This document shows positions 11,348-28,802 of a stretch of 64,000 nt of DNA, piece after piece. The stretch is from an uncultured bacterium (GTDB taxonomy: Bacteria > Hydrothermota > Hydrothermia > UBA1063 > CAJXJZ01), in NCBI GenBank assembly GCA_913055745.1, contig CAJXJZ010000001.1, forward strand, positions 2,798-66,797, given 5' to 3'. The notes under the pieces were generated by a model. The model was not told the DNA's origin. It saw only the letters and a program-made list of their open reading frames with translations, and ran no database searches. Every line of letters starts with the position of its first letter. Within the stretch, counting starts at the first letter, position 1. The translations under genes and the position numbers were made by a program.

Positions 11348-11351
11348 CCTC

Positions 11352-11729: not shown

Positions 11730-11753
11730 GGGGCTTAAAAGCCCCCTATTTTT
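11727..11753. terminator. bidirectional rho-independent terminator
   Basis: Perfect 8 bp stem TAGGGGGC / GCCCCCTA with a 6 nt loop. A-run upstream and TTTTT downstream. It sits between the convergent DUF192 and lemA genes. Confidence 0.75.
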
Positions 11754-11754
11754 A

Positions 11755-12758: not shown

Positions 12759-12773
12759 AATTGCACCTCCTTT

Positions 12774-15700
12774 TTAAAAGAGTAGGCCCCTCCATATACG
12801 GGCGCCACTTTTAACCTTGTACGGCAATGGTGTTGAAGTTTGTATAATCTCACCTGTACTTGTTTGAACAACAACCTGGGCATTCGCCTCACTTGAGGCA
12901 AGGTGTACTGAAGGTGCAGATGCCATTCCTGTACCAACTTCGATCTTCCTTTGGGCTTCCCCGGATGACAATCCCAGTATTGGATTTTGATATCCTGTCC
13001 CTGTTTTATAATACAGGCCATAGAGATAAGATTGTCCACCAAAGCCACAGGGATCCTTTGTTGGCACAAAGGTTGTATAGAACACTGCGCCACCAATTAC
13101 AAGCGGCATATTCAAGGAGCGCTCATCTCTTATGTCTATATACCAACCCTGATAGTTCTCATTAACCCACGTCTCAAAACTATTGAAACTCGCTGTATCA
13201 CCTAAAACGCCATGAACATCTGCCTCTCCTGTGGTTGTATCAACCAAGACCGCTATATCTGTGGCATCTAAAAGATCATTCAAGGTATAACTCTGACTCC
13301 CTGTTTTCCATGCATCATCCTTAAATCCAAAGAGATAATTATTAGGATGCGTACTCTCATCTGCATCGCTCCAGTATCTACCTGTTCCACCAAATACCCA
13401 GAGGTTACCCTCTGCATCCATTGAGGCATTGAGTTTTGCTACTACAGGTCCTGGCAGATTAGAGATAGCAGTAGTAAGTTGCCATTCTGAAACATCGGTT
13501 GTTGGCCGGCCATTTGAGTCTGTTAAGGTTAATCTGTATACCTTGCCTTTATGCTTTTTACCCTCTCTATAATCGCAGCCAATATAAACAACATCTGTAC
13601 TATAGTCTATATTGACATCAACAACAGCAGGTGGTCCAAGATATGCCTTATCTTTATCTATTTCAAATGTACGAAGAAGTTTGCCATTTTTTGGATTAAT
13701 GATATAAACATAACCATGTTGATTGCTATTTCCATCAAAGTCTGTAGGACCAGAAGTTAGTATCACATACCAAGTAGAATCAACCTTAATAATGCCAGGC
13801 TGATTTACTGTATAACCAAGATGTCCATCTGTAAATTCCCACATAAAATCAGGAACATCAGGATTGGTAACATCTAAGGCAAAATAAGAGGACCTAAAAT
13901 TCCTTCCATTGACTGTTATTGGATACCCACCTAATCCCATTCCTCCAAATAACACAGTTCCCCAGCCTTTAGTATGTAAACTACTGGATGAAAAAATCCT
14001 TAAATCAGAGACCTTAGGCGGGAGATCCACATAATTAACATGACAGTAATCAGGCTCCATAAGCCACTTAAGATGTGGTAGTAGATTAAACGGTATATAT
14101 GCCCAGAGTTCATCGCCTATGGGAGTACCCCTCGGGTTTATCCTCTTATTCTCTCTATCAAACACACCTATATTAAAGGCATGGAGCATGCCATCATTGG
14201 CACCTACATAAACAACCGCCCTCCTATCCTTTTTATCTTCGTAAAACTCTCTGTATGTCTCATCTCTGTATATCTTATCATATCTCTCCTGTGGCTCTGC
14301 CACAATCATAGGAGTAGAATTAATAATATCTCCCAACTTCCAGGTATGGTTATTCAAATCAATATTCCTTGGCCTATAACCATAGTAATCTCTACCTTTT
14401 ATGTATCTAATTAATGTATCCGCAAAAGATCTATTAACTCCAAGGTATGGAGCAAGATCATTCCTATTACCTTGGGTAAAATGAAGCCACCTTCGAGTTG
14501 GCAAATGCGTATATATATTTCTATTCCTGTGTGACTTATTAAAGAGCCTTTCACCGGCATTAAATAAGGCGTTCATACCACGACCCAACTGGGTAAGTGG
14601 AACTATACCCACTGTATCATCTGGAATGCCATCATTATTAGTATCTTTTAATCTAATAACCCTGGTTTCATTGCCCTGCATGGTAAACCTTACAATATAG
14701 TCGTTATCGTCAAGTGTAAGGTCATGGTCTGTATCCTCTCTTAGATTACCATACTTATCAATCCAGTAGCCAAGCACAGAACCAAGCCAGTAAAAATCCA
14801 TGCCTCCCTTTGTTAATTTAGGAAGGAAGAATGCCTGCGTAGCGATACCTTCACCCTTTGATGTATTGGAAACAATGGTAACAGCAGCTGCAGCACCAAC
14901 CCTTTGTAGGATGTCCTCTATAGCCTTTCTTATAGACGCCTCAAGTTCAAAACCGTTTTGTGCCGCAAAATAGGCATCAGGAACGCCATCTCTGTTTGCA
15001 TCCCATTCTATCTGTAAATCAGGCCTATTATTACCGTTTTTATCTATAAATGCACCGTTTTTTGCCGCTTGCTTTAAATAGTTACTCCCAGAACCAAAAG
15101 CAAAAACCGTATATAGGGTCATATTCTGCATGCCAGGAATATCACCCCTCATATCGTTTGTATGCGCCCATAAGGCCGTTGATGGCAGACTATGCCCTGG
15201 CGCTGCACCTGTGCCATGATCACAGCATTGCTCACCATCTGTTATGAGAATAATAAAACTTTTCCTGCACCATACAAGACGACCCCAATCCCTATCATAA
15301 TAAGGGTCTCTTACACCGCCATGTTGGGTAGTATAATCCCAATGATAATAACGAGGGCGTTCTTGACGGAAATACCTTACTGCTTCATAGTATGATGATG
15401 TAAGCGGTGTAACACCGTTTGCAGGCATGTTTTCAACATTCGAAATAAAACGACTGAATGTAGTATTTCCTATATAAGAGACAATATGCCCACCGTATCC
15501 ATTTGTATTGTATGTAAAAAGCCCAAACCTTGGAGCATTATCGTCCCAATGGCCATCTCGGTCTTTGTCTCCTATCTGCTGAATAATGCCCCTTGCAAAG
15601 TTATCTGCCACTTTTACTTGAACATGCGCATGCCATAATCTTATTGACCACCACCACCAATGAACTCTTTCTATAATATACAGCCTGCTAGGATATCCGT

Positions 15701-16184
15701 ATCCAAGGTATCTAAAAAATTTATGGCCTCTGTATTTAAAGTATCTCCAGCCATCACCCCACCAGGTCTCTGCAACAAGCGTGTGAACATTACCCTGCCT
15801 CGACCTTGCCTTACCTCCTACAAGGACCTTTTTTGCAATATCCATCCTTGACATTGTAGCCCAGTTTAATAGATTGCCCGGAAAGCAGCCATTGGAAAGA
15901 TGACTATTGGGTCTGCAGTTGGATGGATAAAAGACACCATGACTATATCTATAATTTTTATCGTTTCTGAAATAACCGTAGTAGTGTGTATTCTCATGAA
16001 ATGTAACACCACGATACGCCCATGAATTCATACTACCTGAGTTATCTAGTAATATGAGAATATTAGGTGCTATAGATGTACCAAGAAACGGTGGTCTATT
16101 ACAGGGCATATCCTCTGCCCTTATAGTACCTATATATGCTGCCATCAGCAATATACTGATGGCTACACTTCTTACATACCTCAT
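12774..16184 (-). CDS. pilY1: type IV pilus tip adhesin PilY1-like protein with N-terminal vWA domain
   Basis: Signal peptide. vWA MIDAS motif ILILLDNSGSMN. 1136 aa, with the C-terminal two-thirds aromatic and glycine-rich, consistent with a beta-propeller. It is the last large gene of the minor-pilin operon. Confidence 0.7.
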   Translation of the reverse strand: MRYVRSVAISILLMAAYIGTIRAEDMPCNRPPFLGTSIAPNILILLDNSGSMNSWAYRGVTFHENTHYYGYFRNDKNYRYSHGVFYPSNCRPNSHLSNGCFPGNLLNWATMSRMDIAKKVLVGGKARSRQGNVHTLVAETWWGDGWRYFKYRGHKFFRYLGYGYPSRLYIIERVHWWWWSIRLWHAHVQVKVADNFARGIIQQIGDKDRDGHWDDNAPRFGLFTYNTNGYGGHIVSYIGNTTFSRFISNVENMPANGVTPLTSSYYEAVRYFRQERPRYYHWDYTTQHGGVRDPYYDRDWGRLVWCRKSFIILITDGEQCCDHGTGAAPGHSLPSTALWAHTNDMRGDIPGMQNMTLYTVFAFGSGSNYLKQAAKNGAFIDKNGNNRPDLQIEWDANRDGVPDAYFAAQNGFELEASIRKAIEDILQRVGAAAAVTIVSNTSKGEGIATQAFFLPKLTKGGMDFYWLGSVLGYWIDKYGNLREDTDHDLTLDDNDYIVRFTMQGNETRVIRLKDTNNDGIPDDTVGIVPLTQLGRGMNALFNAGERLFNKSHRNRNIYTHLPTRRWLHFTQGNRNDLAPYLGVNRSFADTLIRYIKGRDYYGYRPRNIDLNNHTWKLGDIINSTPMIVAEPQERYDKIYRDETYREFYEDKKDRRAVVYVGANDGMLHAFNIGVFDRENKRINPRGTPIGDELWAYIPFNLLPHLKWLMEPDYCHVNYVDLPPKVSDLRIFSSSSLHTKGWGTVLFGGMGLGGYPITVNGRNFRSSYFALDVTNPDVPDFMWEFTDGHLGYTVNQPGIIKVDSTWYVILTSGPTDFDGNSNQHGYVYIINPKNGKLLRTFEIDKDKAYLGPPAVVDVNIDYSTDVVYIGCDYREGKKHKGKVYRLTLTDSNGRPTTDVSEWQLTTAISNLPGPVVAKLNASMDAEGNLWVFGGTGRYWSDADESTHPNNYLFGFKDDAWKTGSQSYTLNDLLDATDIAVLVDTTTGEADVHGVLGDTASFNSFETWVNENYQGWYIDIRDERSLNMPLVIGGAVFYTTFVPTKDPCGFGGQSYLYGLYYKTGTGYQNPILGLSSGEAQRKIEVGTGMASAPSVHLASSEANAQVVVQTSTGEIIQTSTPLPYKVKSGARIWRGLLF

Positions 16185-16200
16185 AATAAGACACCTCCTC

Positions 16201-16671
16201 TTATTGTTGTGTACCTACGACCTTTCTGTATATGACCTCAAGACCAGTCTTCCCTGTTCTTGAGGTTGCCACTGAAGTAATCCTATAAAAAAGCGCTGCA
16301 CCACCTTTTGCAGCACTCTGCCCTATACCGGCATAGCCCTCTGCAAATAAAATAGAGCCACCTGTCATAGGCATTATGAATAGAAACTCAGGGTCTACCT
16401 TCACATTGTAACCTGCCATATTACCCTGCCATGATGAAAGAGGGGTACCTTGATTGTAAGATGTCAAAACCTTATCTATACCTATATCCACCCCTCCTTC
16501 TGCTGCTTGAAATGTGCCCTCATACCTTATTTGTGACGATGAGACCTTTATAGATTGTGTCACTAAATACAGTGTGGCAGAACTTGCAATAAATAAAACA
16601 GCAATAATGACAAGGACCGTAACCAGGGCTATGCCCTTCCTTCTATTTTTAATAATCTTTATTTTCCTCAT
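16201..16671 (-). CDS. pilX: PilX-like minor pilin
   Basis: Basic N-terminus then a hydrophobic helix (GIALVTVLVIIAVLFIASS), PilX-like. It sits between pilW and pilY1. Confidence 0.55.
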   Translation of the reverse strand: MRKIKIIKNRRKGIALVTVLVIIAVLFIASSATLYLVTQSIKVSSSQIRYEGTFQAAEGGVDIGIDKVLTSYNQGTPLSSWQGNMAGYNVKVDPEFLFIMPMTGGSILFAEGYAGIGQSAAKGGAALFYRITSVATSRTGKTGLEVIYRKVVGTQQ

Positions 16672-17627
16672 CTTACATTCCTCACCTTTGTTGTTATGGT
16701 ATAAATTCTTCTCCTATAATGCCTATCTTTTTGAGAAAGTGTATATTGATGGTCTTCCACCTTTATGTTCTGATGTGGATATGTATAGTTCATATCCCTT
16801 TCTCCAAGAACAACCATTTTTATCCTAACAAGTCTTATTTTCTCGCGTTCTGTGGGGGAAAGATTACTTATATCCCATCTCCACTCTCTATCATCCACTT
16901 GATAATTTTCATTTTCATCATACCAGTACGCAACTTCAAAATCCTCTACATTGTTAATCACAGGTAGACCATTGCGAAGAAGTTGTCCATTCTGTAACCT
17001 ATAGTTAATATTCATATCATTTTGATTTTGCGGTAATGCAAAAACAAAAATCCCCTTGCCAACACTCACTGTTTTATTAAGTGTCAGGACCGTAGCAGGT
17101 ACAGTATCTCCTGAGGGCCCAATATAAACCTGGTTTTGTAGAGCTGTAACCCGTGCAGGGAAGCCTGCAATTGGCGTTTTTGTGTCTGGCATTGCTGTTA
17201 TGACGTCTCCTCTGCCAATATCAACCCTCGCGTCATTCCACCTTCTGACTACGATGGTATTTGAGCCACCTGCCCCGGAATTAGATGTCAATGTAAATGT
17301 CCATTTCCCTGTGCCACCCACTGGTGGGTCAACAGACCTGAGGCTTAATACATCTGGATTGCTATTTGTTCCATTAAGTGGGTTTTGTGAACTTGGAATA
17401 CCATATCCTGCCATCAAAATATCCCATCTCAAAAGCGCAAGTGCAGACTGAAAATCGGTCTGGAGTTTGCTTATGCCTCTCTGTTTTACAGAAGTGCTTA
17501 ATTGACGGGTAAATACTTCTAAAACAGCAAGGGATAAAATGGCAAATATGGAAAGGGCTATTACCAACTCCACAAGGGTCATACCCTTACGTTTCTTTAT
17601 TTTAAAATAAAACATTGAATAAAACAC
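16668..17627 (-). CDS. pilW: PilW-like minor pilin
   Basis: Prepilin N-methylation motif KGMTLVELVIALSIF. The size (319 aa) and operon position match PilW. Confidence 0.6.
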   Translation of the reverse strand: MFYSMFYFKIKKRKGMTLVELVIALSIFAILSLAVLEVFTRQLSTSVKQRGISKLQTDFQSALALLRWDILMAGYGIPSSQNPLNGTNSNPDVLSLRSVDPPVGGTGKWTFTLTSNSGAGGSNTIVVRRWNDARVDIGRGDVITAMPDTKTPIAGFPARVTALQNQVYIGPSGDTVPATVLTLNKTVSVGKGIFVFALPQNQNDMNINYRLQNGQLLRNGLPVINNVEDFEVAYWYDENENYQVDDREWRWDISNLSPTEREKIRLVRIKMVVLGERDMNYTYPHQNIKVEDHQYTLSQKDRHYRRRIYTITTKVRNVR

Positions 17628-17636
17628 CTCCTATGT

Positions 17637-18053
17637 TTAATAATTGCTGTTAACCCTTACTGTGGTAAAAGAAAGATGGTGACTGCCAAGCCCATCTCTC
17701 CATAAAATATGTAATTTTATGGTTTTCGTGTTATTGGAATAAGACTTATCTTTAATATTATAGCCACGCGTATAAACAATGCCAGATATTGTGGTATCTG
17801 GGAGTTGGTGGTCAAAATGTGCGGTATTATCAAGATCCCCAGCATCCCCATCATCAGCAATAAGAGGACTATTGTAATCATAAGCACGCACCTGTTCCAT
17901 AAACTCCTCAGCAAGCATTTTTGCATTATTCATATTTCTCACCTTTACATTCATCTTCATAGCAATATCGAACAACGGCCCTGACAGAAAAATAGCAAAT
18001 ATAGTAAGAGCAACCAATAATTCTATTAAAGTAAAACCTTCCCTGTCTTTCAT
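17637..18053 (-). CDS. pilV: PilV-like minor pilin
   Basis: GFTLIELLVALTIF class III signal. The start is moved to the second ATG (18053..18051), which follows the RBS GGAGGTG. Confidence 0.6.
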   Translation of the reverse strand: MKDREGFTLIELLVALTIFAIFLSGPLFDIAMKMNVKVRNMNNAKMLAEEFMEQVRAYDYNSPLIADDGDAGDLDNTAHFDHQLPDTTISGIVYTRGYNIKDKSYSNNTKTIKLHILWRDGLGSHHLSFTTVRVNSNY

Positions 18054-18601
18054 TATCTCACCTCCGCCCATGCATTATTTACCCATTTATAGGCATTTAC
18101 AATACCTGTTGGTGAAACTACAATGGCAGCTGTTCCAAATTTTTTACTGGTAAAAATAATAGCGCCTTCTTCCACAGCCATGCCGTTGGGATTGAATTCG
18201 CACCGATCACCTCTCCCAAACATAATACCATCCTGGTCTGGGACAGCATTAATAAGAGGTAAGGGTATAGTTATACCACCATTTCCAAAAGTAAAATCTT
18301 TCCCGAGTACTTCTCTGGTCTCATAGTTAAGAGATAGATCTGCATTTACCCTAAAGATACGCATTGTGTCGGGTGACAAAAACTCAATTCCCCTTCTTGT
18401 GCCCTGTTCAATACTCTTATATCGCTCCCTCTGTATTATGTTTGAAATCTTCAATGCTTCATTGGTTAGTGTCTGGCTATTAAGTGTCCTTTTATACTGC
18501 CAACCTGCAATTAAGGCTAAAGTACCAATTATACCTATTATAACTAACAACTCTATAAGAGTAAAACCTACCCTTCTTTTATTATTTAATAGTAAGACCA
18601 T
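18053..18601 (-). CDS. fimT: FimT/FimU (GspH-like) minor pilin
   Basis: GFTLIELLVIIGIIG prepilin motif. RBS AAAGGAGGTG lies upstream. It is the first gene of the operon. Confidence 0.6.
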   Translation of the reverse strand: MVLLLNNKRRVGFTLIELLVIIGIIGTLALIAGWQYKRTLNSQTLTNEALKISNIIQRERYKSIEQGTRRGIEFLSPDTMRIFRVNADLSLNYETREVLGKDFTFGNGGITIPLPLINAVPDQDGIMFGRGDRCEFNPNGMAVEEGAIIFTSKKFGTAAIVVSPTGIVNAYKWVNNAWAEVR

Positions 18602-18628
18602 CTTTTCACCTCCTTTGATCTCCCCATT

Positions 18629-18652
18629 TTATTTTTTGTTTAACACAATCAT
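18629..18652 (-). other. 7-codon upstream ORF (MIVLNKK) with strong RBS between promoter and fimT
   Basis: On the minus strand the sequence reads AAGGAGGTGGTTCAT ATG ATT GTG TTA AAC AAA AAA TAA. The second RBS and the fimT ATG follow. Confidence 0.25.
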
Positions 18653-18683
18653 ATGAACCACCTCCTTTGTATTTCTATACATA

Positions 18684-18711
18684 ATTATACGCCTTTTATG
18701 CGTTTTGTCAA
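18684..18711 (-). promoter_or_regulatory. sigma70-type promoter of the minor pilin operon
   Basis: On the minus strand: TTGACA, 16 nt spacer, TATAAT. Confidence 0.5.
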
Positions 18712-18727
18712 GACCAAATTTGATAGA

Positions 18728-19990
18728 TTACTTTTCTTCTGGTATAGTGGCACCTTTTACGCCTTCCTGCTTCGTCTCAGTTTCTTCTGGACTTTTAAGA
18801 GTGTTCATGGCTTCGTCACCAACGATTTTCGGTGTTACAAACACCATGAGCTCAACCTTTGATGATGCATTTTCATTGCTTGAGAAAAGCAGGTTTATAA
18901 CGGGGATCTTCCTCAAAAATGGAAATCCAGCATTACCCTTTCTCTTTGTTTGTTTTACTACACCACCGAGAACAATTGTCTCACCATTCTTTATGGTAAG
19001 TTTTGTCTCTGCCTCCTGATTGCTTATTATAGGCTGACCTGCTGGAGAATACCCCGCTATATCACTTACCTGAGGATGAAGTTCCATGGCTATATTCCCA
19101 TCAGGAGTAATATGTGGTGTAACTTCAAGTTTAATTGCTGCATCAAAAAACTGAACAACTGTATTGCCCGAAATATCTTTTGTAACAACAGGTACTTTTT
19201 TACCTGAGACAATCTTTGCCTTATTGTTGTTTGCAACCATTATTGAAGGTGCAGAAACAATGTTTGCCTTACTTTCATTTTCAAGAGCCTGCAACACATT
19301 ATCTATTGAAATGCCTTTCACAATGGTCCCAATAGATAGATTGGTTTGTGCACCCCCAATGGACGCATCGTTGGAAAGCCTTACACCTACCTTATCCGTA
19401 GGATGGTCTTTTGCAACCACCCAGTTTATACCCAAACTCCTTGCTGCATCGTAATCCACCTCTACCACCTTAACCTGTATCTGAACCTGCCTCTCAGGTC
19501 TATCCATTCCACTTAGGAAGTTTTCTATTTTTATAAGATTATCAGGTAAATCTGTTATAACTAAGGAATTGGTTGAACTTTCTACTTTCATCTTTCCACG
19601 AGAAGATAAAAGGCTCTCTACGACGGGCGCCACATCGGACGCTTTAAGGTACTTAACACGAAATACCTTCATCTCCAAGCCTGCAATATCCCTTACCTTG
19701 GAATATTCATCCTGTGTCATAACGGTAATAATGTTTTTCTGCTCAGTATAAGCAAGGGAATATGCATTAAGAAGTGAAGTGAATGCCTCTCTCCATGGCA
19801 CATTTTTCACACTAAATGTGACATTAGCCTTAACATCTGGTGTTGTTACAATATTAACACCAGCAACATCAGAAAAAGCCCTGAGCACTGTTTTTATATC
19901 GGCATTTTGTACATCAAGGCTTATTGTTTTTTCACCCGCTAAAAGGGCACCTGTTATTAAAAATATGCTCATTACCCTAAAAAATTTCAT
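18728..19990 (-). CDS. pilQ: type IV pilus secretin PilQ (short form lacking AMIN domains)
   Basis: Signal peptide. N-domains, then a C-terminal secretin domain with blocks VVANNNKAKIVSG, ETIVLGGVV and GFPFLRKIPVINLLF. Confidence 0.8.
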   Translation of the reverse strand: MKFFRVMSIFLITGALLAGEKTISLDVQNADIKTVLRAFSDVAGVNIVTTPDVKANVTFSVKNVPWREAFTSLLNAYSLAYTEQKNIITVMTQDEYSKVRDIAGLEMKVFRVKYLKASDVAPVVESLLSSRGKMKVESSTNSLVITDLPDNLIKIENFLSGMDRPERQVQIQVKVVEVDYDAARSLGINWVVAKDHPTDKVGVRLSNDASIGGAQTNLSIGTIVKGISIDNVLQALENESKANIVSAPSIMVANNNKAKIVSGKKVPVVTKDISGNTVVQFFDAAIKLEVTPHITPDGNIAMELHPQVSDIAGYSPAGQPIISNQEAETKLTIKNGETIVLGGVVKQTKRKGNAGFPFLRKIPVINLLFSSNENASSKVELMVFVTPKIVGDEAMNTLKSPEETETKQEGVKGATIPEEK

Positions 19991-20784
19991 TTGGATACCT
20001 CCTTATTTTCAAGTTTTAATATTACTGTTCTTGTAAACCCAAAATCAGATATGGCAAAAACAGCCATATCTTTTGTAACTCTAACTACCCTACCCCTCTT
20101 TATTCTGTCTCCTCTTCTTAAAATAAATCCTTTGCCATTTTTATCTTCCACCAACGCAACATATCCCGTAGAATCTTGTATAATTCCAATTAATTTAGCC
20201 TTTGCTATATCCAAAAGGGTATCCTGTTCCATGGATACCTCCTGAATGGGTTTAAAGGGGTCTCTCCTTCCTCTTGAACTATAGAAGAGTTTTGAGCCAG
20301 CAGAAAAAGTTGACCTTGGTTTTGAGATCTCAGATGCCTTATTTTTATTTTCCATTTTTTGTTTTCTCACGCCCTTAGAACCCTTAATAGTCTGATTATA
20401 GCCCACTTTTGCTGGCTCAGTATAAACCTTTACTTTAACAGAATGCCCCTCACGAATGACTTCATATTTTACTATTTTTGAGAGGTCCACAACAATCCTT
20501 GCGACCTGGGGCTCTATCTTAAATTGGCTTCCACGAACTCTAAGAACAGCACCTTGATTCACCGGGAACATTTTAGAGCCAAGCGCATACTTTGTATCCT
20601 CAGCATCTATAACGATACGAGCAGGATTTTTAAGCATGAAGTCATGAATATTGGAGGGTTGAGAGGTATATTCAAGTATTATTTCTACATAGTTTTCCCC
20701 GGTGGAGATAGATAGTGTTTTAAGTTCGCACGTCCCGGCAAAAAGCATCGCCGGAAATATAAAACCTAACATAAGTTTTTTCAT
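19987..20784 (-). CDS. pilP: AMIN domain / PilP-like pilus assembly protein
   Basis: Signal or lipoprotein-type N-terminus. An AMIN-like beta domain (IVIDAEDTKYAL ... VARIVVDL). The C-terminal block GKGFILRRGDRI is PilP-like. It sits between pilO and pilQ. Confidence 0.5.
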   Translation of the reverse strand: MKKLMLGFIFPAMLFAGTCELKTLSISTGENYVEIILEYTSQPSNIHDFMLKNPARIVIDAEDTKYALGSKMFPVNQGAVLRVRGSQFKIEPQVARIVVDLSKIVKYEVIREGHSVKVKVYTEPAKVGYNQTIKGSKGVRKQKMENKNKASEISKPRSTFSAGSKLFYSSRGRRDPFKPIQEVSMEQDTLLDIAKAKLIGIIQDSTGYVALVEDKNGKGFILRRGDRIKRGRVVRVTKDMAVFAISDFGFTRTVILKLENKEVSK

Positions 20785-21371
20785 CTTCTTCCCCTCCTTT
20801 TTCTACTACTATTTACAGGGGCAGGACTGTAAACATAGTTAGAGATTTCAAATACGGCTTCAACCGTCTGAGATGGGTCCTCTTCATTCGGCTTGCCCTT
20901 AATTGTAAGCCCTTTTACCTTCATCAATCTATCCGCATTGGAAATAAGACTTATAAACGTTCCGAGATCATGATACCCACTTGCGACACTAATCTTAATG
21001 GGATACTCTCTATACAGATCAAACTGCTTAAAAGATAAGGGTTTGTATGACTCAATCTCTATCCCGCAACTCATTGCCATTCCTGCTATTTGCCTAAGCC
21101 ATTCATCTGGTTGGGGCTTAGATGGAAGATGCTTCTTAACTTCCCCCCAGAGGGCAAGTAATGAATCCTTTTCAGCCATTATTTTGTCATAGTCTTTTAC
21201 TTCAACCGTTAATTGAGCAACTGATCTTCGTTCTGCTTGTATCTCATGTTCCAGTTTTTTAAGTTTCTTCGCCTTTCCTGCATAGATACCGCTTATGTAG
21301 AGATAGCCAACAATTATATAAACCAGTATGGCTATCCCCCAAACGACCTTTGGATTTTTAATAAATTTCAT
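20781..21371 (-). CDS. pilO: type IV pilus assembly protein PilO
   Basis: Single TM helix then a coiled coil. The size and operon position match PilO. Confidence 0.6.
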   Translation of the reverse strand: MKFIKNPKVVWGIAILVYIIVGYLYISGIYAGKAKKLKKLEHEIQAERRSVAQLTVEVKDYDKIMAEKDSLLALWGEVKKHLPSKPQPDEWLRQIAGMAMSCGIEIESYKPLSFKQFDLYREYPIKISVASGYHDLGTFISLISNADRLMKVKGLTIKGKPNEEDPSQTVEAVFEISNYVYSPAPVNSSRKRRGRR

Positions 21372-21395
21372 ATTTCCCCCTTTGTAGCAATTCTA

Positions 21396-21941
21396 CTATC
21401 TCATTATATATTCAGTTCCCACAATTACACGAGGGGCCTCTGCCTTTGTTCCTGATTTTATAGTCAAGCCAGTTATTTCATTTTCTAATTGTCCTGCAAT
21501 ATGAACCGTAGTGGTTGTATCTATCTCACCAGTATAAGGATTATGAATCGTATAGTCGCTATCAGGTGTCCAAATGAAAGATATTTTAACATCACACATT
21601 TTTAACTCATCAAACATATATTTGCTTTCATCAAAATTACGACCAAGATAGACAGTGAAACTGTATTCACCATTTTTATCCGTCGTAGTATATAGGTCTT
21701 CTCCCATATAAGAATTGTCAGATGATTCATCCTGCTCAAGGTAAACCTGTACTCCTTCAGCAGGATGTAGATAAATTATTGTATCTTGAGCTGTAGTGTC
21801 TTGTGAATTTCGTACTATATCCGCTTCAGCCCAGTATACGGTACCATGAACTTCAGCCGTCTGATTTTCCTCATTGCATCCCAAAAGAGCAAACACTGCT
21901 CCTACTACAATTACCGAGAGTATCTTATAAAGCCTCATCAC
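21396..21941 (-). CDS. lipoprotein with carboxypeptidase-regulatory-like beta-sandwich
   Basis: Lipobox LLGC. The motif TTTDKNGEYSF is typical of the CarbopepD_reg fold. It is inserted between pilMN and pilO. Confidence 0.4.
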   Translation of the reverse strand: MMRLYKILSVIVVGAVFALLGCNEENQTAEVHGTVYWAEADIVRNSQDTTAQDTIIYLHPAEGVQVYLEQDESSDNSYMGEDLYTTTDKNGEYSFTVYLGRNFDESKYMFDELKMCDVKISFIWTPDSDYTIHNPYTGEIDTTTTVHIAGQLENEITGLTIKSGTKAEAPRVIVGTEYIMR

Positions 21942-23605
21942 CTACCTCCTTGTTTTTTATCGTTTCGTCCTTCTCCCTTTTCAGCAAGAAGGACTGGATT
22001 TAATTTTATAGATAGTTTAAAATGTGCAACTTTTCGTTCATTTGCTTTATCTACTCTTGACTCAATCAATTGGACATCACTGATAAGTGGTGAGGAAAGT
22101 AATCTCTTCATAAATTGTGCAAGCACTAAATTAGATCCCGTCTCTCCATCAATCTCAAGTTCATCAGCACCTTTTTCAGATACTCCAAGGAGCCATGTAT
22201 CATACGGTATTAGCCTATTTATCTCATCCATAATCTGAACATAGCGCACTCTATCCCTTGATAGGTTTTTAATTACCTCAATCTTACCACTTACCTCCTC
22301 TATCTGCTTCTTTATTCCACGTATATCCTCCGCTTTCCTCTGTAAAACCACTTTCTGCTCCGCAAGTGTTTTTTTCTCATTTTCGAGTTTTGCAATCTTT
22401 CGAGATTGGAAAACGCTAACAACCCCCATTAGTATCAAAAGTACAATCAGAACCACAGCGGATAGCACTATATGTGGCATTATTGAAATCTCTTCTACTA
22501 TTTCCAATTCCTCCTCGGGTAATATGTTAACAGAGGTTTCCTTTTCAAAATATGAAATTGCAAGACCAATTGCAACCGAGTATATAGCAGGCATATCGCC
22601 TACACCTTCTTCCGCTTCATACTCCAATTCTCTAAAAGGATCAAGAATCTCTACCTCTCCTTCAAACTTTTCTTTTATATAATCTGCAAGCCCTGTTATG
22701 TATGCACCACCACCACTTAAAATCCATTTATCAACTGTTTCGCCTTCTGGTAGAATACCCTGGAAATTCCTCTCTAAATTGCCTACGAACCTATCATTAA
22801 GAGACTCTATGGTATCTCTAAACGCTTCTTCTTCAACCTTATCTCCTGGTCCTTTATACATCACTTCTTCAGCAACTTCACGAGGCAAATCCAAGAATCT
22901 TGAGATAGACTCAATATATGTTTTCGTAGAAACATTCATCTCACGGGAAAGTAGGATTTTACCCCCTCTAATAATAACCAAAACAGTACTTTCATAACCA
23001 ATATGAACAACTCCTGTGGTCTTTCCTTCTTCCAAATAGCCGTTGTATTTTAATGTGTTATAGAGTGCTACAGGGTCAACATTAACTGAAAATGGCTCAA
23101 GTCCCGAAGCACGAGCAAGGTCCAAAAGACCATACACTACCTCAGGTTTCGCTGCAGCAAGAAACACATCTAAAGAACCTGCCGTATCAGCATCTCCAAG
23201 AATAAAGTACCCCCATGTTACATCAGCAGGGTCAACATTTAACTCCTCTCTAATTTTCCATACAATGGATTCGTCCAACTCTTCCTTCTTCTTCTGTTTT
23301 GGGACGGTGATTTTCCTAACTATTACATCTTGACCAGCGACATTGATGGCCGCTGCTTGAACTTCGCTTCCAAGCCTTTTTACCGCTTCCTGTAACTTTA
23401 CTATGACCTCTTGCCTATCCATTATTTCCTTACCCACAATCAGTTCAGGAGGTAGTTTCTCCCAAGTCAAATTCTTAAGTACATATTTCTTTCCTCTTCT
23501 CTCAACCTCCACGACCTTTAAAGAACTGGTGCCAATATCAATACCTATAATACTATTTCCACCTCCAGCCTTTTTTAGGCCCTTTAACAAATCGCTAAGG
23601 CTCAT
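21938..23605 (-). CDS. pilMN: fused PilM-PilN type IV pilus assembly protein
   Basis: The N-terminal ~350 aa is the actin-like PilM fold (IGIDIGTSSLKVV). It is followed by a TM helix and a coiled-coil PilN-like domain (VLIVLLILMGVVSVF ... KIAKLENEKKTL). Confidence 0.7.
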   Translation of the reverse strand: MSLSDLLKGLKKAGGGNSIIGIDIGTSSLKVVEVERRGKKYVLKNLTWEKLPPELIVGKEIMDRQEVIVKLQEAVKRLGSEVQAAAINVAGQDVIVRKITVPKQKKKEELDESIVWKIREELNVDPADVTWGYFILGDADTAGSLDVFLAAAKPEVVYGLLDLARASGLEPFSVNVDPVALYNTLKYNGYLEEGKTTGVVHIGYESTVLVIIRGGKILLSREMNVSTKTYIESISRFLDLPREVAEEVMYKGPGDKVEEEAFRDTIESLNDRFVGNLERNFQGILPEGETVDKWILSGGGAYITGLADYIKEKFEGEVEILDPFRELEYEAEEGVGDMPAIYSVAIGLAISYFEKETSVNILPEEELEIVEEISIMPHIVLSAVVLIVLLILMGVVSVFQSRKIAKLENEKKTLAEQKVVLQRKAEDIRGIKKQIEEVSGKIEVIKNLSRDRVRYVQIMDEINRLIPYDTWLLGVSEKGADELEIDGETGSNLVLAQFMKRLLSSPLISDVQLIESRVDKANERKVAHFKLSIKLNPVLLAEKGEGRNDKKQGGR

Positions 23606-23622: not shown

Positions 23623-24843
23623 TTATCTATATGTTTTTAATATAACCTTTATCACGCTGGTATCTATCTTTTTTCCCATACGCGACAAAGTTATAACCTC
23701 GTTAATAATGGCATTAAGGATCCTTAAATTATCCTCTGCTCCCTTTTGTATTAAATCTAAAACATCTGAACCGAGGTCTAAATTAGAAAGTTTTTTCTTA
23801 AGTATCTTCATTTTTAATTCTTTATCAGGAGGTTCAATGGGAGAGGCTATAGAAGTTTCTATAATAGATATTAATTTTTTATTCATACCGGATAGCGCCT
23901 TGAGAGGCACGCTACTTGTGAAAATAAATTGTTTTTCCTGAAGATGTAGCTCCATTAAAACATAAAGGAGTTGATTCTGAGCATAATCATGCCCTAACAA
24001 GAGGTCTAAATCATCAAACAAAAATACATCTGTTTCAACATGAGATAACCTGAACTTTTTCAGGTCTTTATCACTCTTTATATTATTCAATAAATCCATA
24101 AACTTTATAGCATCAGTATATAGGACTCCACGAAAGTTTTCATGCTCAAGTATATAATTTCCAACAGCGTTTAAAAGATGTGTTTTTCCATAACCTTCTT
24201 TCCCAAAAATAAACAATCTTGTATTTTCAACTCCACGCGTCTCAGCAAAACTCTTTGCAAAAGAATATGCAACTTCATTACAAGCACTTAGTTCAAAATT
24301 CTCAAAGTTCATATTACTTTGAAGCGTAAGACCAACTTCTCCTTTTAGTTTACCATAAGCTGTAGGAGCGCTTATTTCCTCTTCTTCTTTTTGAATCTCC
24401 TCGGAATAATATGTTTGTATATAATCAAGGATTTCTGATACCCTACCAACAAATGGAATGATTTTAAGGTCTGTCACTTTCTTTAATTCCCCTGCCATCT
24501 CTCTATTTAGAGGGTTTCCCATAACAACGGCAAGAGACCTACCACTTTTCCTGAGTGGTATTAAAACATACTTTTTTGCAATTCTGTATGGAATATGATC
24601 GACAGCCTCTGGGTCAGGCTGAATCACTGATAGGTCAACAAACTTTAAAGGGAATTTCTTCGTCAAAACGGAGATGAGTGTATCTTCATTCACATATCCC
24701 TTATTAATAAGATAAAGTTCTATGGAAATCCCCTCACTCCATTGGGCCTTTAGAGCCTTCTTCATTACTTCTTGTGATACTATCCCTTCACTAACAAGTA
24801 TATCTGCAAACGTTTTTCGTTTTACTTTTTCAAGTTCTGCCAT
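23623..24843 (-). CDS. MshEN (T2SS-E N-terminal) domain fused to DnaA/Hda-like AAA+ ATPase
   Basis: The N-terminal ~140 aa resembles the GspE/PilB N-domain (FADILVSEGIVSQEVMKKALKAQ ... IPYRIAKKYVLIPL). The C-terminus has Walker A GKEGYGKTHLLNAVGN, Walker B VFLFDDLD, box VII IEPPDKELKMKILKKK, and sensor 2 NLRILNAIINEV. These mirror DnaA domain III. Confidence 0.6.
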   Translation of the reverse strand: MAELEKVKRKTFADILVSEGIVSQEVMKKALKAQWSEGISIELYLINKGYVNEDTLISVLTKKFPLKFVDLSVIQPDPEAVDHIPYRIAKKYVLIPLRKSGRSLAVVMGNPLNREMAGELKKVTDLKIIPFVGRVSEILDYIQTYYSEEIQKEEEEISAPTAYGKLKGEVGLTLQSNMNFENFELSACNEVAYSFAKSFAETRGVENTRLFIFGKEGYGKTHLLNAVGNYILEHENFRGVLYTDAIKFMDLLNNIKSDKDLKKFRLSHVETDVFLFDDLDLLLGHDYAQNQLLYVLMELHLQEKQFIFTSSVPLKALSGMNKKLISIIETSIASPIEPPDKELKMKILKKKLSNLDLGSDVLDLIQKGAEDNLRILNAIINEVITLSRMGKKIDTSVIKVILKTYR

Positions 24844-24852
24844 ATAATCCTC

Positions 24853-26502
24853 CTAAAAACTTTTTACCCTCTTGAGTCTTAAACTATCAATCCTTTCACT
24901 TAAATCCTTATAATTCTTATCTATAAGATAAATTTGCTCGTATTGTTCCAATGCTTCATCCTCCAATCCTGTGGCTTCATAGGATCTACCTAAATAATAC
25001 CTGATGCCGATATATTCATGCTCCTCGTACCCTCCCTCGTCAAGTGCCTTCAGAAGCATCTTAATCGCCATCTCATAATTATTCATTTCAAAAAAGATTC
25101 TACCTATCATCTCCATTGCCCTTAATCTGTATTCACTATCCCTCATTGCTGTCTGGAACTCAGAAATGGCTAAATCGTAAAGCTCCATTTTGTATAGTGT
25201 CATTGCTGTGTCAAAAGGACGTTCAAAATCGTAAAGTTCATTAATATCAGCCTCCCCCATCTCTTCTATAAATGTAAGAATAATATCCTTGAACTCTTCA
25301 TAGTATTTGCCTTTGGTTTCTTGATACCTACTGGTTGTGGGTGGCTTTTCTCTCTCTAACGGCCTTTCCCTGATAATCTCCTCTGTTTTTTTGACCCTAC
25401 TTTCTGTCTCCTTAGTAGAACCAGTAGCACTTAACTCGTCTACAGAAGGTTCCGTAGATATTTCAGGTTGAGTTTCCTCTTTTGTCTCTTTATCTATTTC
25501 TTCTTTCGTTTCTTCTTTTTGTTGGGCTATAACGCTTTCTTCTTCTGCACCCATCTCAGAAATGACTGGCTCTGTTTCTGGCTCTTCCTCTTCAAAAACG
25601 AGGTCTTCTGTAGATGGTTCTGCTGCCCCGTAAAAATTATCAGACCTTTTTGGGATATCATCAGTTTTTACTTCTTCTTTAAATAAAACAGAACCATCAT
25701 CTTTTTTAGTTGTCTCTTTATCTTCTTCCCTTCTTCCAACATAGAGCTGTTCTTCTTGCTCGGATGCCCCTTCTTCCTCAAAAACCAGTCCTTCTTCTTG
25801 AGATTCCTCTTCTTGAATTTCTGGAGCCTGCGGCACCTTTTCTACCTCTTGCTTAGCCTCATAACCTTTTTCCCCCGCTTCCTCTAAGATTAATCCCTCT
25901 TCTTCACTCTCCTTAGACGTGTTATCCTTACTGAACAAGTCCTCCTCTGAACTCATCTCCATCCCCATTCCACTCTCAAGAGAAATCTCTCCAAACCTTT
26001 CAGATATTTCCTGCAACTTAATAAATAGTCTTTCAAATCTCTGGACACTGGATTCGTCTTCCTGAACCTTCTCAGCAAGTTCATTAATTATAGTGAAAGC
26101 TCTCTCCAACATAGAGGGGTCTATATCATCTGTTATAACACTTTCTAAGGCATCAAGAGCTCCATCTTGATTCCCAAGTTCAGTGTACAGATCAGCCAAT
26201 TCTAAATACAAGTCCCTTCTATCCTTCTCATACTTTAATATCTTACGAACAACAGCAACAGCATTGTCCAAAAATTCTTCTTCTTTGTATAATTTAAATG
26301 ATCTCTCATAATATTCAACCGCTTTAGATATATTCTGCTTTCTCACATAAAGGTCACCTATTGCATTGCATATATCAGGCTCTTCCTTGACTTTCAAGAT
26401 ATCTTCATATATCTCAATAGCCTTATCTATCTTACCCTTTCCAAGGGCTCTTAAAGCCTCACTTCTCTTTTTCTTGATCTTAGCGTTTATATTTTCTGCC
26501 AT
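24853..26502 (-). CDS. TPR repeat protein with long acidic (Glu-rich) low-complexity linker
   Basis: TPR-like helices at both ends. About 170 residues of E/S/K-rich low complexity sit in the middle. It lies in the pilus assembly operon. Confidence 0.5.
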   Translation of the reverse strand: MAENINAKIKKKRSEALRALGKGKIDKAIEIYEDILKVKEEPDICNAIGDLYVRKQNISKAVEYYERSFKLYKEEEFLDNAVAVVRKILKYEKDRRDLYLELADLYTELGNQDGALDALESVITDDIDPSMLERAFTIINELAEKVQEDESSVQRFERLFIKLQEISERFGEISLESGMGMEMSSEEDLFSKDNTSKESEEEGLILEEAGEKGYEAKQEVEKVPQAPEIQEEESQEEGLVFEEEGASEQEEQLYVGRREEDKETTKKDDGSVLFKEEVKTDDIPKRSDNFYGAAEPSTEDLVFEEEEPETEPVISEMGAEEESVIAQQKEETKEEIDKETKEETQPEISTEPSVDELSATGSTKETESRVKKTEEIIRERPLEREKPPTTSRYQETKGKYYEEFKDIILTFIEEMGEADINELYDFERPFDTAMTLYKMELYDLAISEFQTAMRDSEYRLRAMEMIGRIFFEMNNYEMAIKMLLKALDEGGYEEHEYIGIRYYLGRSYEATGLEDEALEQYEQIYLIDKNYKDLSERIDSLRLKRVKSF

Positions 26503-26523
26503 ATCGTATATAATAACATAAGT

Positions 26524-27276
26524 TTAACCAATTGTCAAGTGTTTCGTAAATTGAAATAGGTATATGTAGATAAAAGCGCCCGTAATTAAGAATGGACCAA
26601 AGGGCAAAATCTCTGTTTTATTCTTTATCACAAGGAAAATTCCTATGATACTACCAATAAGTGAGCCAAAGAGAATTGATATAAATACCCCCATGGGACC
26701 TGTAAAAATACCAATCATAGCCATAATAACTATATCACCATCCCCCAAGGCCTCACGCTTAAACAGGGCCTTACCCATCAATCTAAAAAATAGCATAATA
26801 AGGGCACCCAGGGCCGCCCCTATAAGACCAGACACAATACTAAACCCTCCTGGATAAAGTGCCATAAGAGCACCCAGAACTATTGTGGGAAATGTTACAA
26901 CATCCGGTACAATCATCTTCTCTCCATCAATAAAGGCAATGCACTCTGACACACTTATAAAGACAAGATTCCTTAAAAGCTCAAAACTAAGTCCAAATCT
27001 AATAAAGGCAAGCAAAAACAACACTCCTGTTAAAAGTTCTACCAAGAAGTATCTGAAAGGAATGGGATGCTTACAATACCTACATTTTCCACCTAATACG
27101 ATATAAGAAACGAGAGGGATGTTGTCATAAAACTTAATTTTCTTGCCGCAATAGGGGCAATGAGAAGGAGGGTACAGAAGGGACATACCCAGAGGTATAC
27201 GGTATATACATACATTTAAAAAACTACCTATTGCCAGACCTATTATTGTTATTATAACGCCCCATATAATCTGCAT
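26524..27276 (-). CDS. pilD: prepilin peptidase (A24 family)
   Basis: N-terminal CxxC...CxxC (CPYCGKK, CRYCKHP) and a polytopic membrane domain. Confidence 0.8.
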   Translation of the reverse strand: MQIIWGVIITIIGLAIGSFLNVCIYRIPLGMSLLYPPSHCPYCGKKIKFYDNIPLVSYIVLGGKCRYCKHPIPFRYFLVELLTGVLFLLAFIRFGLSFELLRNLVFISVSECIAFIDGEKMIVPDVVTFPTIVLGALMALYPGGFSIVSGLIGAALGALIMLFFRLMGKALFKREALGDGDIVIMAMIGIFTGPMGVFISILFGSLIGSIIGIFLVIKNKTEILPFGPFLITGAFIYIYLFQFTKHLTIG

Positions 27277-27369: not shown

Positions 27370-27786
27370 CTACAAACTTTTTAATATTCTATTTATGAAA
27401 TCCCAATCAAAGCCCTTTTGAAGAAGATGCCTCTTTATATATTCTGGGTCTTTTTTGGTCTTTTTAAACCTTTTTATATAATAGTTAAGCACCTCATCCT
27501 CATCATAACACCCCCTGGCAACCTCCACATGTTCTTTTTTTACCCTGAAATCATGTAAGAGGGTCATCTCTATTTTAAGCCATGACCAGTGGTTCCTGGC
27601 CTTACTTCTTGCGAACTCACACGCAAACTCCTTATCATCTAAAAGCCCATAGAGTTTCAAAAGACCTATTATTTCTTCTATTTCTTCACGAGATGCCCCT
27701 TTTTCTTTCAGTCTTGTTCTTAATTCAAATTCACTTCTTGAACGCACACGAAGAAGAGAGAAGGCGTATGCCTTAAAGTCCCTCAC
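27370..27786 (-). CDS. recX: regulatory protein RecX
   Basis: Three-helix repeat pattern (YAFSLLRVRSRSEFELRTRLKEKG). The size fits RecX. Confidence 0.7.
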   Translation of the reverse strand: MRDFKAYAFSLLRVRSRSEFELRTRLKEKGASREEIEEIIGLLKLYGLLDDKEFACEFARSKARNHWSWLKIEMTLLHDFRVKKEHVEVARGCYDEDEVLNYYIKRFKKTKKDPEYIKRHLLQKGFDWDFINRILKSL

Positions 27787-28802
27787 AAATAATCCTTTTT
27801 CCCCTCTTCCCTCAATTTTTTAACAATGTTTTTTACCTCTTGTGCTCTATCCTTGGGTAAAACCAAAGTGACATCTTTCGTATGGACAACAACAAGTCCT
27901 TCAATACCAAGCACTGCAACCAATCCACTCTCTGAAACTATTATATTGCCACGAGCATCAATCTCTATACTCTCCCCAAGGTCTATATTTCCCATTTTAT
28001 TCTTCTCAAAAACCCGTTCAAGCGCAATGTAGGAGCCAAGGTCTTCCCAGAAAAAACTACTCTCAATTACAACTGCTTTTTTTGTCTTTTCCAAAAGTGC
28101 ATAGTCTATGGATATAGAAGGCATATCTTTGTATATGTCTTCAAGGTTTGAAAGAGAATACCGCTTCAATGGCTCAAGTAAAAAAGGCGCATAGTGCTGA
28201 ACTTCTTCAAAAAATACATCTGTCTTCCAGAAAAACATGCCCGCATTCCAGTAAAACCTACCACTTGAGTAATAAGTCTTTGCCTTTTCTAACTCGGGTT
28301 TTTCATGGAACTTAACCACTTTATAAATCCCATCTTGTATTTTATCGCCTCTTTCTATATATCCAAACCCTGTATCTGCTCTATTGGGTCTTATACCTAT
28401 TGTTGAGATGAAGCCTTTTTGAGCCATAGAAAGAGCATCCTTTACATTATTACTAAATCCATCAATACCTTCTATATAATGATCAGCAGGGAAAACACCT
28501 ACAAGAGAATATCCGTTTTCTTTTGCAAACAATGTAGCAACAGCCACACACGGGCCTGTATTTTTACCCTCAGGTTCTGCTATTATGGACGCATCTTTGA
28601 ACCTCTCTCTTACTTTATCTTCTAATCTCCTTGTAGTTACAATGACCACATGGTCAAAAAGTGGTCTTGTGCGCTCATAGGTTGCCTCAATAAGTTCTTT
28701 ATCACCTTTAATTCTAAGAAACTGCTTTGGATTATCCTCCCGAGATAAGGGCCAAAATCTCTCGCCTTTACCTCCTGCCATAATAATTGCAATACTCCTC
28801 AT
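27783..28802 (-). CDS. manC: mannose-1-phosphate guanylyltransferase
   Basis: N-terminal AIIMAGGKGERFWPLS nucleotidyltransferase motif. It has an ATGA overlap with recX. Confidence 0.8.
   Translation of the reverse strand: MRSIAIIMAGGKGERFWPLSREDNPKQFLRIKGDKELIEATYERTRPLFDHVVIVTTRRLEDKVRERFKDASIIAEPEGKNTGPCVAVATLFAKENGYSLVGVFPADHYIEGIDGFSNNVKDALSMAQKGFISTIGIRPNRADTGFGYIERGDKIQDGIYKVVKFHEKPELEKAKTYYSSGRFYWNAGMFFWKTDVFFEEVQHYAPFLLEPLKRYSLSNLEDIYKDMPSISIDYALLEKTKKAVVIESSFFWEDLGSYIALERVFEKNKMGNIDLGESIEIDARGNIIVSESGLVAVLGIEGLVVVHTKDVTLVLPKDRAQEVKNIVKKLREEGKKDYL

Follow-up and report, generated by a model that had tools for sequence, protein, structure and literature searches.

Few bacterial nanomachines have been studied as thoroughly as the type IV pilus, and its cytoplasmic parts list (PilB, PilT, PilC and PilM, with a few cofactors such as FimX and PilZ) is regarded as largely complete. 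Here we describe a gene family that would add a candidate regulatory component to it in whole phyla without cultured model organisms. The gene under study lies in a 64,000-nucleotide stretch of contig CAJXJZ010000001.1 (GenBank assembly GCA_913055745.1) from an uncultured bacterium of the Hydrothermota; this whole stretch is referred to as the window. Located at 23623-24843 on the minus strand, as are all window features given below, the gene encodes a protein of 406 amino acids in which an MshEN domain, of the type found at the N-terminus of PilB and MshE, is joined to an AAA+ module of the DnaA domain III type, and its neighbours are pilus genes. The protein would thus represent a replication-initiator AAA+ module reused outside DNA metabolism.

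The closest described system for the C-terminal half is domain III of DnaA (PDB 2Z4R, 8BV3 and 1L8Q), which has the same base-plus-lid fold and the same GxGKTHL, DD, IEPPD and NxR motifs. The fusion protein differs from DnaA in lacking domains I, II and IV, in carrying isoleucine at the arginine-finger position and serine in place of the sensor-1 aspartate, and in being encoded in a pilus operon and not at an origin. Hda is similar in that it, too, consists of domain III only with an N-terminal docking element. However, Hda requires its arginine finger and attaches to the beta clamp by a short motif, and no such motif (QL[SDNPT]L[FPLI]) is present in the fusion protein. For the N-terminal half, the N-domains of PilB, MshE, PilF, XpsE and GspE have the same two-subdomain fold and the same pilus-cluster setting, and the degenerate cyclic di-GMP (c-di-GMP) motif of the fusion protein has its counterparts in XpsE and in the GSPII-A domain of PilF. 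Unlike in the PilB, MshE and GspE motors, no T2SSE motor domain follows the N-domain here.

In type II secretion, the GspE N-domain binds the cytoplasmic domain of GspL; PilM is a homolog of that domain, and contacts between the PilB N1D domain and PilM have been inferred from the structures 2BH1 and 4PHT (PMC11656802). What the N1/MshEN domain of the motor binds is described in the field as poorly understood (PMC11656802), and the fusion protein, in which this domain is split from the motor, offers a natural test case. As its gene lies directly 5' of the gene for a fused PilM-PilN protein (PilMN), a contact of the GspE-N1:GspL or PilB-N1D:PilM kind may be proposed by analogy. Other non-motor cytoplasmic factors that dock, regulate or localise are FimX, PilZ and CpiA, TadZ/CpaE of the Tad system and ExeA/GspA of type II secretion; TadZ and ExeA are nucleotide-binding proteins, but none of these factors is known to contain an MshEN domain or an AAA+ module of the DnaA type. 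A 2024 review of PilB cofactors makes no mention of DnaA or AAA+ (PMC11656802). The published catalogue of MshEN architectures, which lists REC, HD-GYP, CheA, CheX, cyclase, kinase, glycosyltransferase, AAA_31 and other partners, does not include a DnaA-type partner, supplementary table included (PMC5013675). Full-text literature searches gave no paper describing the MshEN-DnaA-III architecture, in agreement with a preliminary description of this DNA, made from its letters and open reading frames (ORFs), which knew of no pilus component with this combination. The architecture is present in databases under generic or wrong names.

Two modules in one protein

The limits of the gene in the ORF list agree exactly with 23623-24843, with the stop codon at 23623-23625, and an identical protein (P0001) is already present in public assemblies. 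Pfam MshEN (PF05157) matches residues 66-149 (E 3e-15, 56.4 bits against a cut-off of 23.1) and Pfam Bac_DnaA (PF00308) matches residues 174-330 (E 2.3e-27, 96.6 bits against a cut-off of 23), the latter spanning profile positions 1-157 of 162. In the NCBIfam alignments, residues 12-156 correspond to positions 2-146 of the PilB model, and residues 148-404 to positions 78-337 of 437 in the DnaA model, i.e. to domain III and the lid only. The AlphaFold2 model of the full-length protein (predicted local distance difference test score, pLDDT, 84.8) contains two folded modules, with residues 155-168 between them disordered (pLDDT <50); we assign the acidic disordered linker to residues 155-170 (24334-24381). 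The two-module architecture is real, as the match statistics rule out chance. A GspE/MshE-type N-domain followed by a DnaA-type AAA+ part had been proposed in the preliminary description, and both halves score above the cut-offs of their profiles and have the expected folds.

DnaA domains I (DnaA_N), II and IV (Bac_DnaA_C) are absent from the protein: neither DnaA_N nor Bac_DnaA_C gave a Pfam match, whereas canonical DnaA matches in the same search do carry PF11638 and PF08299. The C-terminus lies 32 residues past sensor 2, directly after the lid, which confirms the absence of a DNA-binding domain IV noted previously. The T2SSE motor domain (PF00437) also has no match in the protein, and its scores against the PilB and GspE equivalogs (63 against 676 and 12 against 630, respectively) come from the N-domain only. 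No transmembrane segment was found in the fusion protein by hydropathy, and the protein is soluble.

The AAA+ module consists of a domain IIIa-type base (residues 171-340; 23824-24333), supported by Pfam Bac_DnaA and by sequence and fold matches in the PDB, and a domain IIIb-type lid (residues 341-406; 23626-23823), supported by the NCBIfam alignment and by model helices spanning 341-405. Searched against solved structures, the C-terminal half retrieves DnaA of T. maritima, B. subtilis and A. aeolicus (E 1e-32 to 1e-21). The module superposes on domain III of B. subtilis and T. maritima DnaA with a template modelling (TM) score of 0.88-0.89 (target-normalised), a root mean square deviation (rmsd) of 2.3 Å and 29-32% identity; for Hda, the TM score is about 0.7 and the identity 16-19%. 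Walker A (G214-K-E-G-Y-G-K-T-H-L223; 24175-24204), Walker B (V273-FLFDDL-279 with D277 and D278; 24007-24027), the IEPPD segment (I336-EPPD-340) and sensor 2 (N372-L-R374; 23722-23730) are all intact. In the sensor-1/box VI segment (F306-IFTSSV-312; 23908-23928), the family alignment places Ser311 at the position of the DnaA aspartate. At the arginine-finger position of box VII, HMMER alignments place Ile327 (codon 23863-23865): the segment LiSii of the fusion protein aligns with LvSRf of T. maritima, and Ile327 occupies the position of the finger arginine in T. maritima, B. subtilis and A. aeolicus DnaA.

In E. coli DnaA, we take R285 to be the box VII finger to which Ile327 is equivalent, D269 to be the sensor-1 residue that gives unusually tight nucleotide binding, and R334 to be sensor 2. 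These three residues are needed in DnaA for inter-subunit activation and tight nucleotide binding. As Walker A, Walker B and sensor 2 are kept but the finger and the sensor-1 aspartate are lost, the module is predicted to bind nucleotide without DnaA-style inter-subunit activation. The preliminary description had credited the module with every hallmark of DnaA domain III; this stands for Walker A, Walker B, IEPPD and NxR but fails at the finger (Ile327) and at sensor 1 (serine). Its description of the module as Hda-like was not borne out, since the module is far nearer DnaA domain III by TM score and by profile score and the protein lacks a clamp motif. Neither equivalog cut-off is reached, with 171.3 bits against 343.9 for DnaA (TIGR00362) and 51.2 bits against 194.8 for Hda (TIGR03420). 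In an alignment of 129 proteins that each contain both modules, from which all motif counts are taken, the nucleotide-binding residues are close to invariant: the Walker A lysine and D277 are found in 129/129, D278 in 127 and the sensor-2 arginine (R374) in 121.

The N-module is composed of a four-helix MshEN_N subdomain (residues 9-63; 24655-24819), defined by alignment to 5HTL, motif tests and models (helices 12-18, 24-37, 41-47 and 53-63), and an alpha/beta MshEN_C subdomain of the N1E type (residues 66-154; 24382-24648), defined by Pfam MshEN and Foldseek, which we propose as the docking surface. PilF, M. xanthus PilB, Geobacter PilB and V. cholerae MshE are the solved structures that this half matches in sequence. 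A separate model of residues 1-156 (pLDDT 88.2) has fold matches at probability 1.00 to 5HTL, 9G1W, 6EJF, 7LKM and 2D28, and the N-module superposes on MshE, the GSPII domains of PilF, X. citri PilB-N and XpsE-N, with 21-29% identity to MshE, PilF and X. citri PilB-N; the best structural match is PilF GSPII-A (TM score 0.76). For the alpha/beta subdomain, superposition with EpsE-N1 (EpsE:EpsL complex, 2BH1) gives a TM score of 0.70 (target), an rmsd of 2.7 Å and 17% identity, and Foldseek also matches this subdomain to GspE in 4PHT.

Pilus setting and breadth of the family

In the window, the gene is flanked by a tetratricopeptide repeat (TPR) protein on its 5' side and by PilMN on its 3' side, as had been recorded in the preliminary description. 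The TPR protein (549 residues; 24853-26502) has Pfam TPR matches at both ends and an acidic low-complexity middle, with an isoelectric point of 4.4 and 82 Asp/Glu in its central 260 residues. No signal peptide or transmembrane segment was found in it, so it is cytoplasmic; being both cytoplasmic and very acidic, it is not the outer-membrane pilotin PilF/PilW. It resembles SgmX of Myxococcus in being a cytoplasmic TPR protein of a pilus system, although it scores only 31 bits against the NCBIfam SgmX model (cut-off 1800), and SgmX is not known for an acidic middle region or for pairing with an AAA+ protein. The Shine-Dalgarno sequence of the fusion gene, AGGAGG at 24849-24854, read directly 5 nt 5' of the ATG, overlaps the TAG stop of the TPR gene, which suggests translational coupling. 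PilMN (555 residues; 21938-23605) contains PilM_2 (21-351) and PilN (457-535) matches and a single transmembrane segment near residue 379 by hydropathy. From the TPR gene to pilQ, all genes are co-directional and separated by -4 to 24 nt, and no terminator-like site was found between the genes of this interval; their co-transcription can reasonably be proposed from this layout, and its extension to pilD is plausible.

Two observations concern PilMN itself. The PilM-PilN fusion is kept wherever its gene follows the MshEN-DnaA-III gene in related loci (538-600 residues). Its 110-bit match to the Akkermansia Amuc_1101 PilM-like family is sub-threshold (cut-off 650).

A survey of gene neighbourhoods showed that pilus machinery genes adjoin the fusion gene in 13/13 independent contexts, very divergent relatives included, and that dnaN, recF, gyrB or other origin-region genes occur in none of the 13. 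The window and all the related loci have pilus genes on both sides of the fusion gene and not an origin-region (dnaA-dnaN) arrangement. Together, these contexts support the proposal in the preliminary description that the protein is not a replication factor. Nine of the 13 contexts have a TPR gene adjacent or close to the fusion gene, and in two of them (L001 and L007) these two reading frames share 4 nt. Typically, the genes run in the order cytoplasmic TPR protein, fusion, PilMN, PilO and PilQ; elsewhere the fusion adjoins pilB or pilT. The window, L013-15 and L005 share the order pilD, TPR, fusion, PilMN, lipoprotein, PilO, AMIN/PilP, PilQ and minor pilins, followed by PilY1 where the locus reaches that far. 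L001 has the same order from TPR to the minor pilins, without pilD upstream; L007 runs pilD, TPR, fusion, PilMN, small ORF, PilO, AMIN and PilQ; and L018 and L020 have TPR, fusion and PilMN, with PilO and PilQ further along. In L008 and L019, the order is TPR, PilT-like protein, fusion and sensor kinase, and L008 continues with PilMN, PilO and PilQ. L004 is an MSHA-like cluster (secretin, AAA_22, TPR, MshE, PilC, PilT, an unnamed gene, fusion, TPR), L012 has GGDEF, pilT, fusion, two pilB genes, pilC, pilS, pilR and pilins, L010 has the fusion followed by pilB, L009 has the fusion followed by a partial ORF that starts with an MshEN domain, and L011 has three fusion paralogs and an MshEN-only protein near pilB.

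We considered whether finger-less proteins are PilMN-adjacent and finger-bearing ones PilB/PilT-adjacent. This was rejected, as P0057 (SRF) and P0097 (Arg) are both encoded in the order TPR, fusion, PilMN. These two keep the finger in a PilMN-adjacent setting, so finger loss is not required for the pilus role.

Some contexts have features of their own. The three paralogs of L011 lie in a row (5619-17217; 977, 418 and 1,984 residues), two of them with two DnaA-III modules, and are accompanied by the MshEN-only protein (436 residues), with genes for a TonB_C protein and PilB coming next; on this contig, the family is strikingly expanded. In L007, the locus of a distant relative, the genes 3' of pilQ (15775-20951) encode a histidine kinase, a response regulator with PatA_N, an MglB-like Roadblock/LC7 protein, an unannotated 204-residue protein and PilT, a hint that pili of this type may be linked to a polarity module like that of Myxococcus. 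In L012 (7521-11365), a GGDEF diguanylate cyclase gene lies two genes 5' of a finger-bearing fusion whose sequence matches a single relaxed c-di-GMP half-motif; within the family, some branches may receive input from a second messenger.

The fusion is neither rare nor unique but one compact form of a large family. A word-indexed search returned about 31 clusters with the MshEN-DnaA-III architecture, with WOR-3 and Candidatus Hydrothermota as source names. The window is assigned to WOR-3, as three species known from metagenome-assembled genomes (MAGs) of this division carry the protein at 85-90% identity. We then searched 1.84 billion cluster representatives exhaustively with a profile and mapped both modules on the best 150 (50%-identity) representatives; at least 100 of these best 150 have an MshEN module followed by a DnaA-III module. 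A further profile search of a 5.8-billion-protein set returned mostly close relatives and no new taxa or names. The carriers are WOR-3, Hydrothermota, Hydrogenedens and unnamed metagenomic lineages, and all those seen are uncultured. Family members differ in linker length (13 to about 800 residues); the long-linker forms belong to Candidatus Hydrogenedens and are annotated 'DnaA/Hda family protein', and P0025, P0031, P0053, P0063, P0065, P0070 and P0080 bear the JGI/UniRef name 'chromosomal replication initiator protein DnaA'. Such systematic mis-annotation as DnaA could mislead origin prediction and gene counts in MAGs.

The protein diverges at a pace comparable to that of its pilus neighbours: for L001, the values are 51% for the fusion, 48% for PilMN, 47% for PilO and 57% for PilQ. 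In a protein-guided codon alignment, in which the linker has a one-codon indel past residue 154, the nonsynonymous divergence (dN) against the 85-90% orthologs is 0.04-0.12, while the synonymous divergence is saturated, so that no ratio of the two is given. Of the two modules, the N-module is the slower to evolve, at about half the rate of the AAA+ module. These sequence comparisons show the protein to be under purifying selection. In a neighbour-joining tree of the AAA+ modules, a divergent group of 11 representatives that includes the window protein stands apart from a clade of 81 that includes the Hydrogenedens-type proteins; the tree is midpoint-rooted with long branches and is unfit to decide on a single origin of the fusion.

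The searches also returned two further, uncharacterised DnaA-domain-III families that, judged by length and module position, do not resemble canonical initiators. One has two tandem DnaA-III modules in proteins of about 600-700 residues without MshEN (e.g. P0055, P0056, P0059 and P0064; about 37 modules), and the other has a single C-terminal DnaA-III module in proteins of about 1,360 residues (P0152, P0157, P0165 and others).

Proposed role and competing explanations

The family is a conserved, uncharacterised, pilus-associated one, built from two well-known domains, and we infer its function from context; the binding partner, ATP binding and regulatory output of the fusion are likewise inferred. 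We are confident that the family has a genuine role in the pilus. At a probability of roughly one half, we favour the reading that the protein is a soluble cytoplasmic pilus accessory factor, which docks through its N-domain and works as an ATP-binding switch or scaffold together with its TPR partner. With its c-di-GMP contacts lost, the N-module would most likely be a protein-docking module, and it probably binds the PilM part of PilMN as GspE-N1 binds GspL, or another partner of the motor. In the simplest model, it would occupy or compete for the socket that receives the motor on the PilM ring, or bind a partner of the motor, with the flexible linker tethering a DnaA-III module that carries nucleotide-binding residues. 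In the clade of the window protein, this AAA+ module would most likely act as an ATP/ADP-dependent conformational switch or scaffold and not as a cooperative, hydrolysing oligomer. The translationally coupled TPR protein would provide further contacts, so that the two could jointly gate or position assembly at the pilus base. A fuller version, in which an AAA+ module exapted from DnaA is brought to the PilM stator by a motor-type docking domain and acts there with the TPR protein to gate PilB/PilT binding, or to compete with it, in a nucleotide-dependent manner, is put forward tentatively. If true, the family would be a previously unrecognised pilus component in WOR-3, Hydrothermota, Hydrogenedentota and others, it would represent the first non-DNA job of the DnaA AAA+ branch, and it would add a new regulatory layer to pilus extension and retraction.

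Several points weigh against this reading. The contacts with pilus proteins are proposed by analogy and ATP binding is predicted from motifs. Lys322-Lys323, conserved and just N-terminal to the lost finger, might conceivably take its place, which would allow hydrolysis in an oligomer. The finger is kept in 91/129 family members, P0057 and P0097 of the PilMN-adjacent ones among them, so a switch rather than a motor may hold for the window clade only, and an active oligomer is possible in the finger-bearing relatives. The conserved basic patch K6/K8/K10 may leave room for some anionic ligand at the N-module. Finally, a canonical dnaA was not found within the window.

The first alternative is that the protein is an active oligomeric AAA+ machine, i.e. 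a filament or ring on the pilus base whose ATP hydrolysis remodels PilMN, the platform or the secretin pathway. There is precedent for such AAA+ helpers, as ExeA/GspA, itself an AAA+ protein, helps the type II secretion secretin to assemble, and the L004 cluster includes an ExeA-like ATPase (AAA_22). Pairing of modules is suggested by the tandem DnaA-III proteins and by MshEN proteins with two such modules, and most of the family retains the RLxSRF finger (Arg 91, Phe 21 and Ile 10 of 129) and the sensor-1 aspartate (Asp 88 and Ser 30 of 129). The window clade, however, departs from this pattern: among the 31 close homologs, the finger position is Ile or Phe in all but P0031, the most distant of them, sensor 1 is Ser or Asn throughout, and the sensor-2 arginine is replaced by lysine in five. 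We consider an oligomeric machine rather unlikely for the window protein.

A second-messenger switch, in which the MshEN domain binds c-di-GMP or a related nucleotide and relays this to the AAA+ module, is distinctly improbable. The two 24-residue half-motifs are degenerate: relative to V. cholerae MshE (5HTL), R9-L10-G11 is replaced by T11-F12-A13 and R38-L39-G40 by S40-I41-E42, and Q32 is kept as Q34 but Q61 is replaced by K63. With the published relaxed screening motif for c-di-GMP-binding MshEN domains (PMC5013675), neither half of the fusion protein matches, whereas the V. cholerae control matches twice. The complete relaxed motif is present in 0/31 close homologs and in 1/99 distant family members (P0053, which has both halves), and the NCBIfam c-di-GMP motif model NF053729 scores 33.8 against a cut-off of 38. 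The hydrophobic skeleton of both half-motifs and Gln34 are nonetheless retained, the basic N-terminal patch (K6, K8, K10) is conserved, and the L012 relative lies near a GGDEF gene. The position-1 arginine is also dispensable in PilF GSPII-B, where it is replaced (K167, L196) and the Kd is still 6 nM (PMC11731258). Loss of Gly-3, here Ala13 and Glu42, is the stronger argument because its backbone amide hydrogen-bonds the guanine. Similar changes, G11V and G40L among them, account for the loss of binding in XpsE (PMC5013675), and PilF GSPII-A, the best structural match of the N-module, has one degenerate half and does not bind c-di-GMP (PMC11731258). Canonical c-di-GMP binding by the N-module is unlikely on this evidence, which weakens the second-messenger idea raised in the preliminary description.

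Many bacteria take up DNA for natural transformation by means of type IV pili, and the DnaA-type module might instead bind incoming single-stranded DNA at the pilus base. DnaA domain III binds such DNA as an ATP-dependent filament, and the structure 3R8F is among the fold matches; the GSPII domains of PilF also influence transformation (PMC11731258). However, comEC, comEA and dprA were not seen beside the fusion in any context, and the filament needs the finger-mediated interface that is missing in the window clade. The residue equivalent to E. coli DnaA Arg245, presumably a single-stranded-DNA-binding residue, is Tyr, Phe, Arg or Lys among the close homologs, a point of low weight since it varies among the aligned canonical DnaA sequences too. 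A role in DNA uptake therefore seems very improbable. The least credible alternative is a DnaA/Hda-type replication regulator that merely lies in a pilus operon, or that couples replication to the state of the pilus by capping DnaA oligomers: databases do name members 'chromosomal replication initiator protein DnaA' or 'DnaA/Hda family protein' and the nearest solved structures are DnaA, but the protein lacks domains I, II and IV and a clamp motif, scores far below the DnaA and Hda cut-offs (171 against 344 and 51 against 195), has no Hda-type finger in the window clade and is without origin genes in 13 contexts.

Neighbouring genes of the window

The lipoprotein gene between pilMN and pilO (181 residues, acidic, lipobox LLGC; 21396-21941) overlaps pilMN by 4 nt. 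Its product has no Pfam family above cut-off, with faint CarboxypepD_reg and SdrD_B matches. A small ORF occupies this slot in related loci, with 30-60% identity by tblastn in L001, L005, L008 and L013-15, and with no detected similarity in L007 and L018 (135-137 residues). Pili of this type may have in the lipoprotein a periplasmic component that has so far gone unrecognised. It is followed by PilO (20781-21371; Pfam), an AMIN/PilP-like protein (19987-20784) with an N-terminal AMIN domain and a weakly PilP-like C-terminus (18 bits), and the PilQ secretin (18728-19990; Pfam). The AMIN domain is usually part of PilQ in better-known systems. This block from lipoprotein to PilQ (18728-21941) keeps the same order in related loci.

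Beyond pilQ lies a minor pilin block (12774-18601; Pfam) with two N_methyl pilins, PilW, PilX and PilY1. A promoter scan of the 126-nt gap between pilQ and this block gave a perfect sigma-70 match (TTGACA, 16-nt spacer, TATAAT; 18684-18711), which suggests that the minor pilin/PilY1 block has its own promoter. On the other side of the fusion gene, pilD encodes the prepilin peptidase (26524-27276; Pfam A24_N_bact and Peptidase_A24). A strong promoter-like site (TTGACA, 17-nt spacer, extended TG, TATTAT; 11/12 matches; 26510-26538), predicted by consensus scan only, is located just 5' of the TPR start, within the 3' end of pilD.

Within the window, no pilB, pilT or second copy of either module of the fusion was found. 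Directly 5' of pilD, the window has recX and a mannose-1-phosphate guanylyltransferase gene (27370-28802). L005 (61% identity) has a divergent pilB-pilT-pilC at this place, indicating that the window lineage has had its motor genes split off from the operon.

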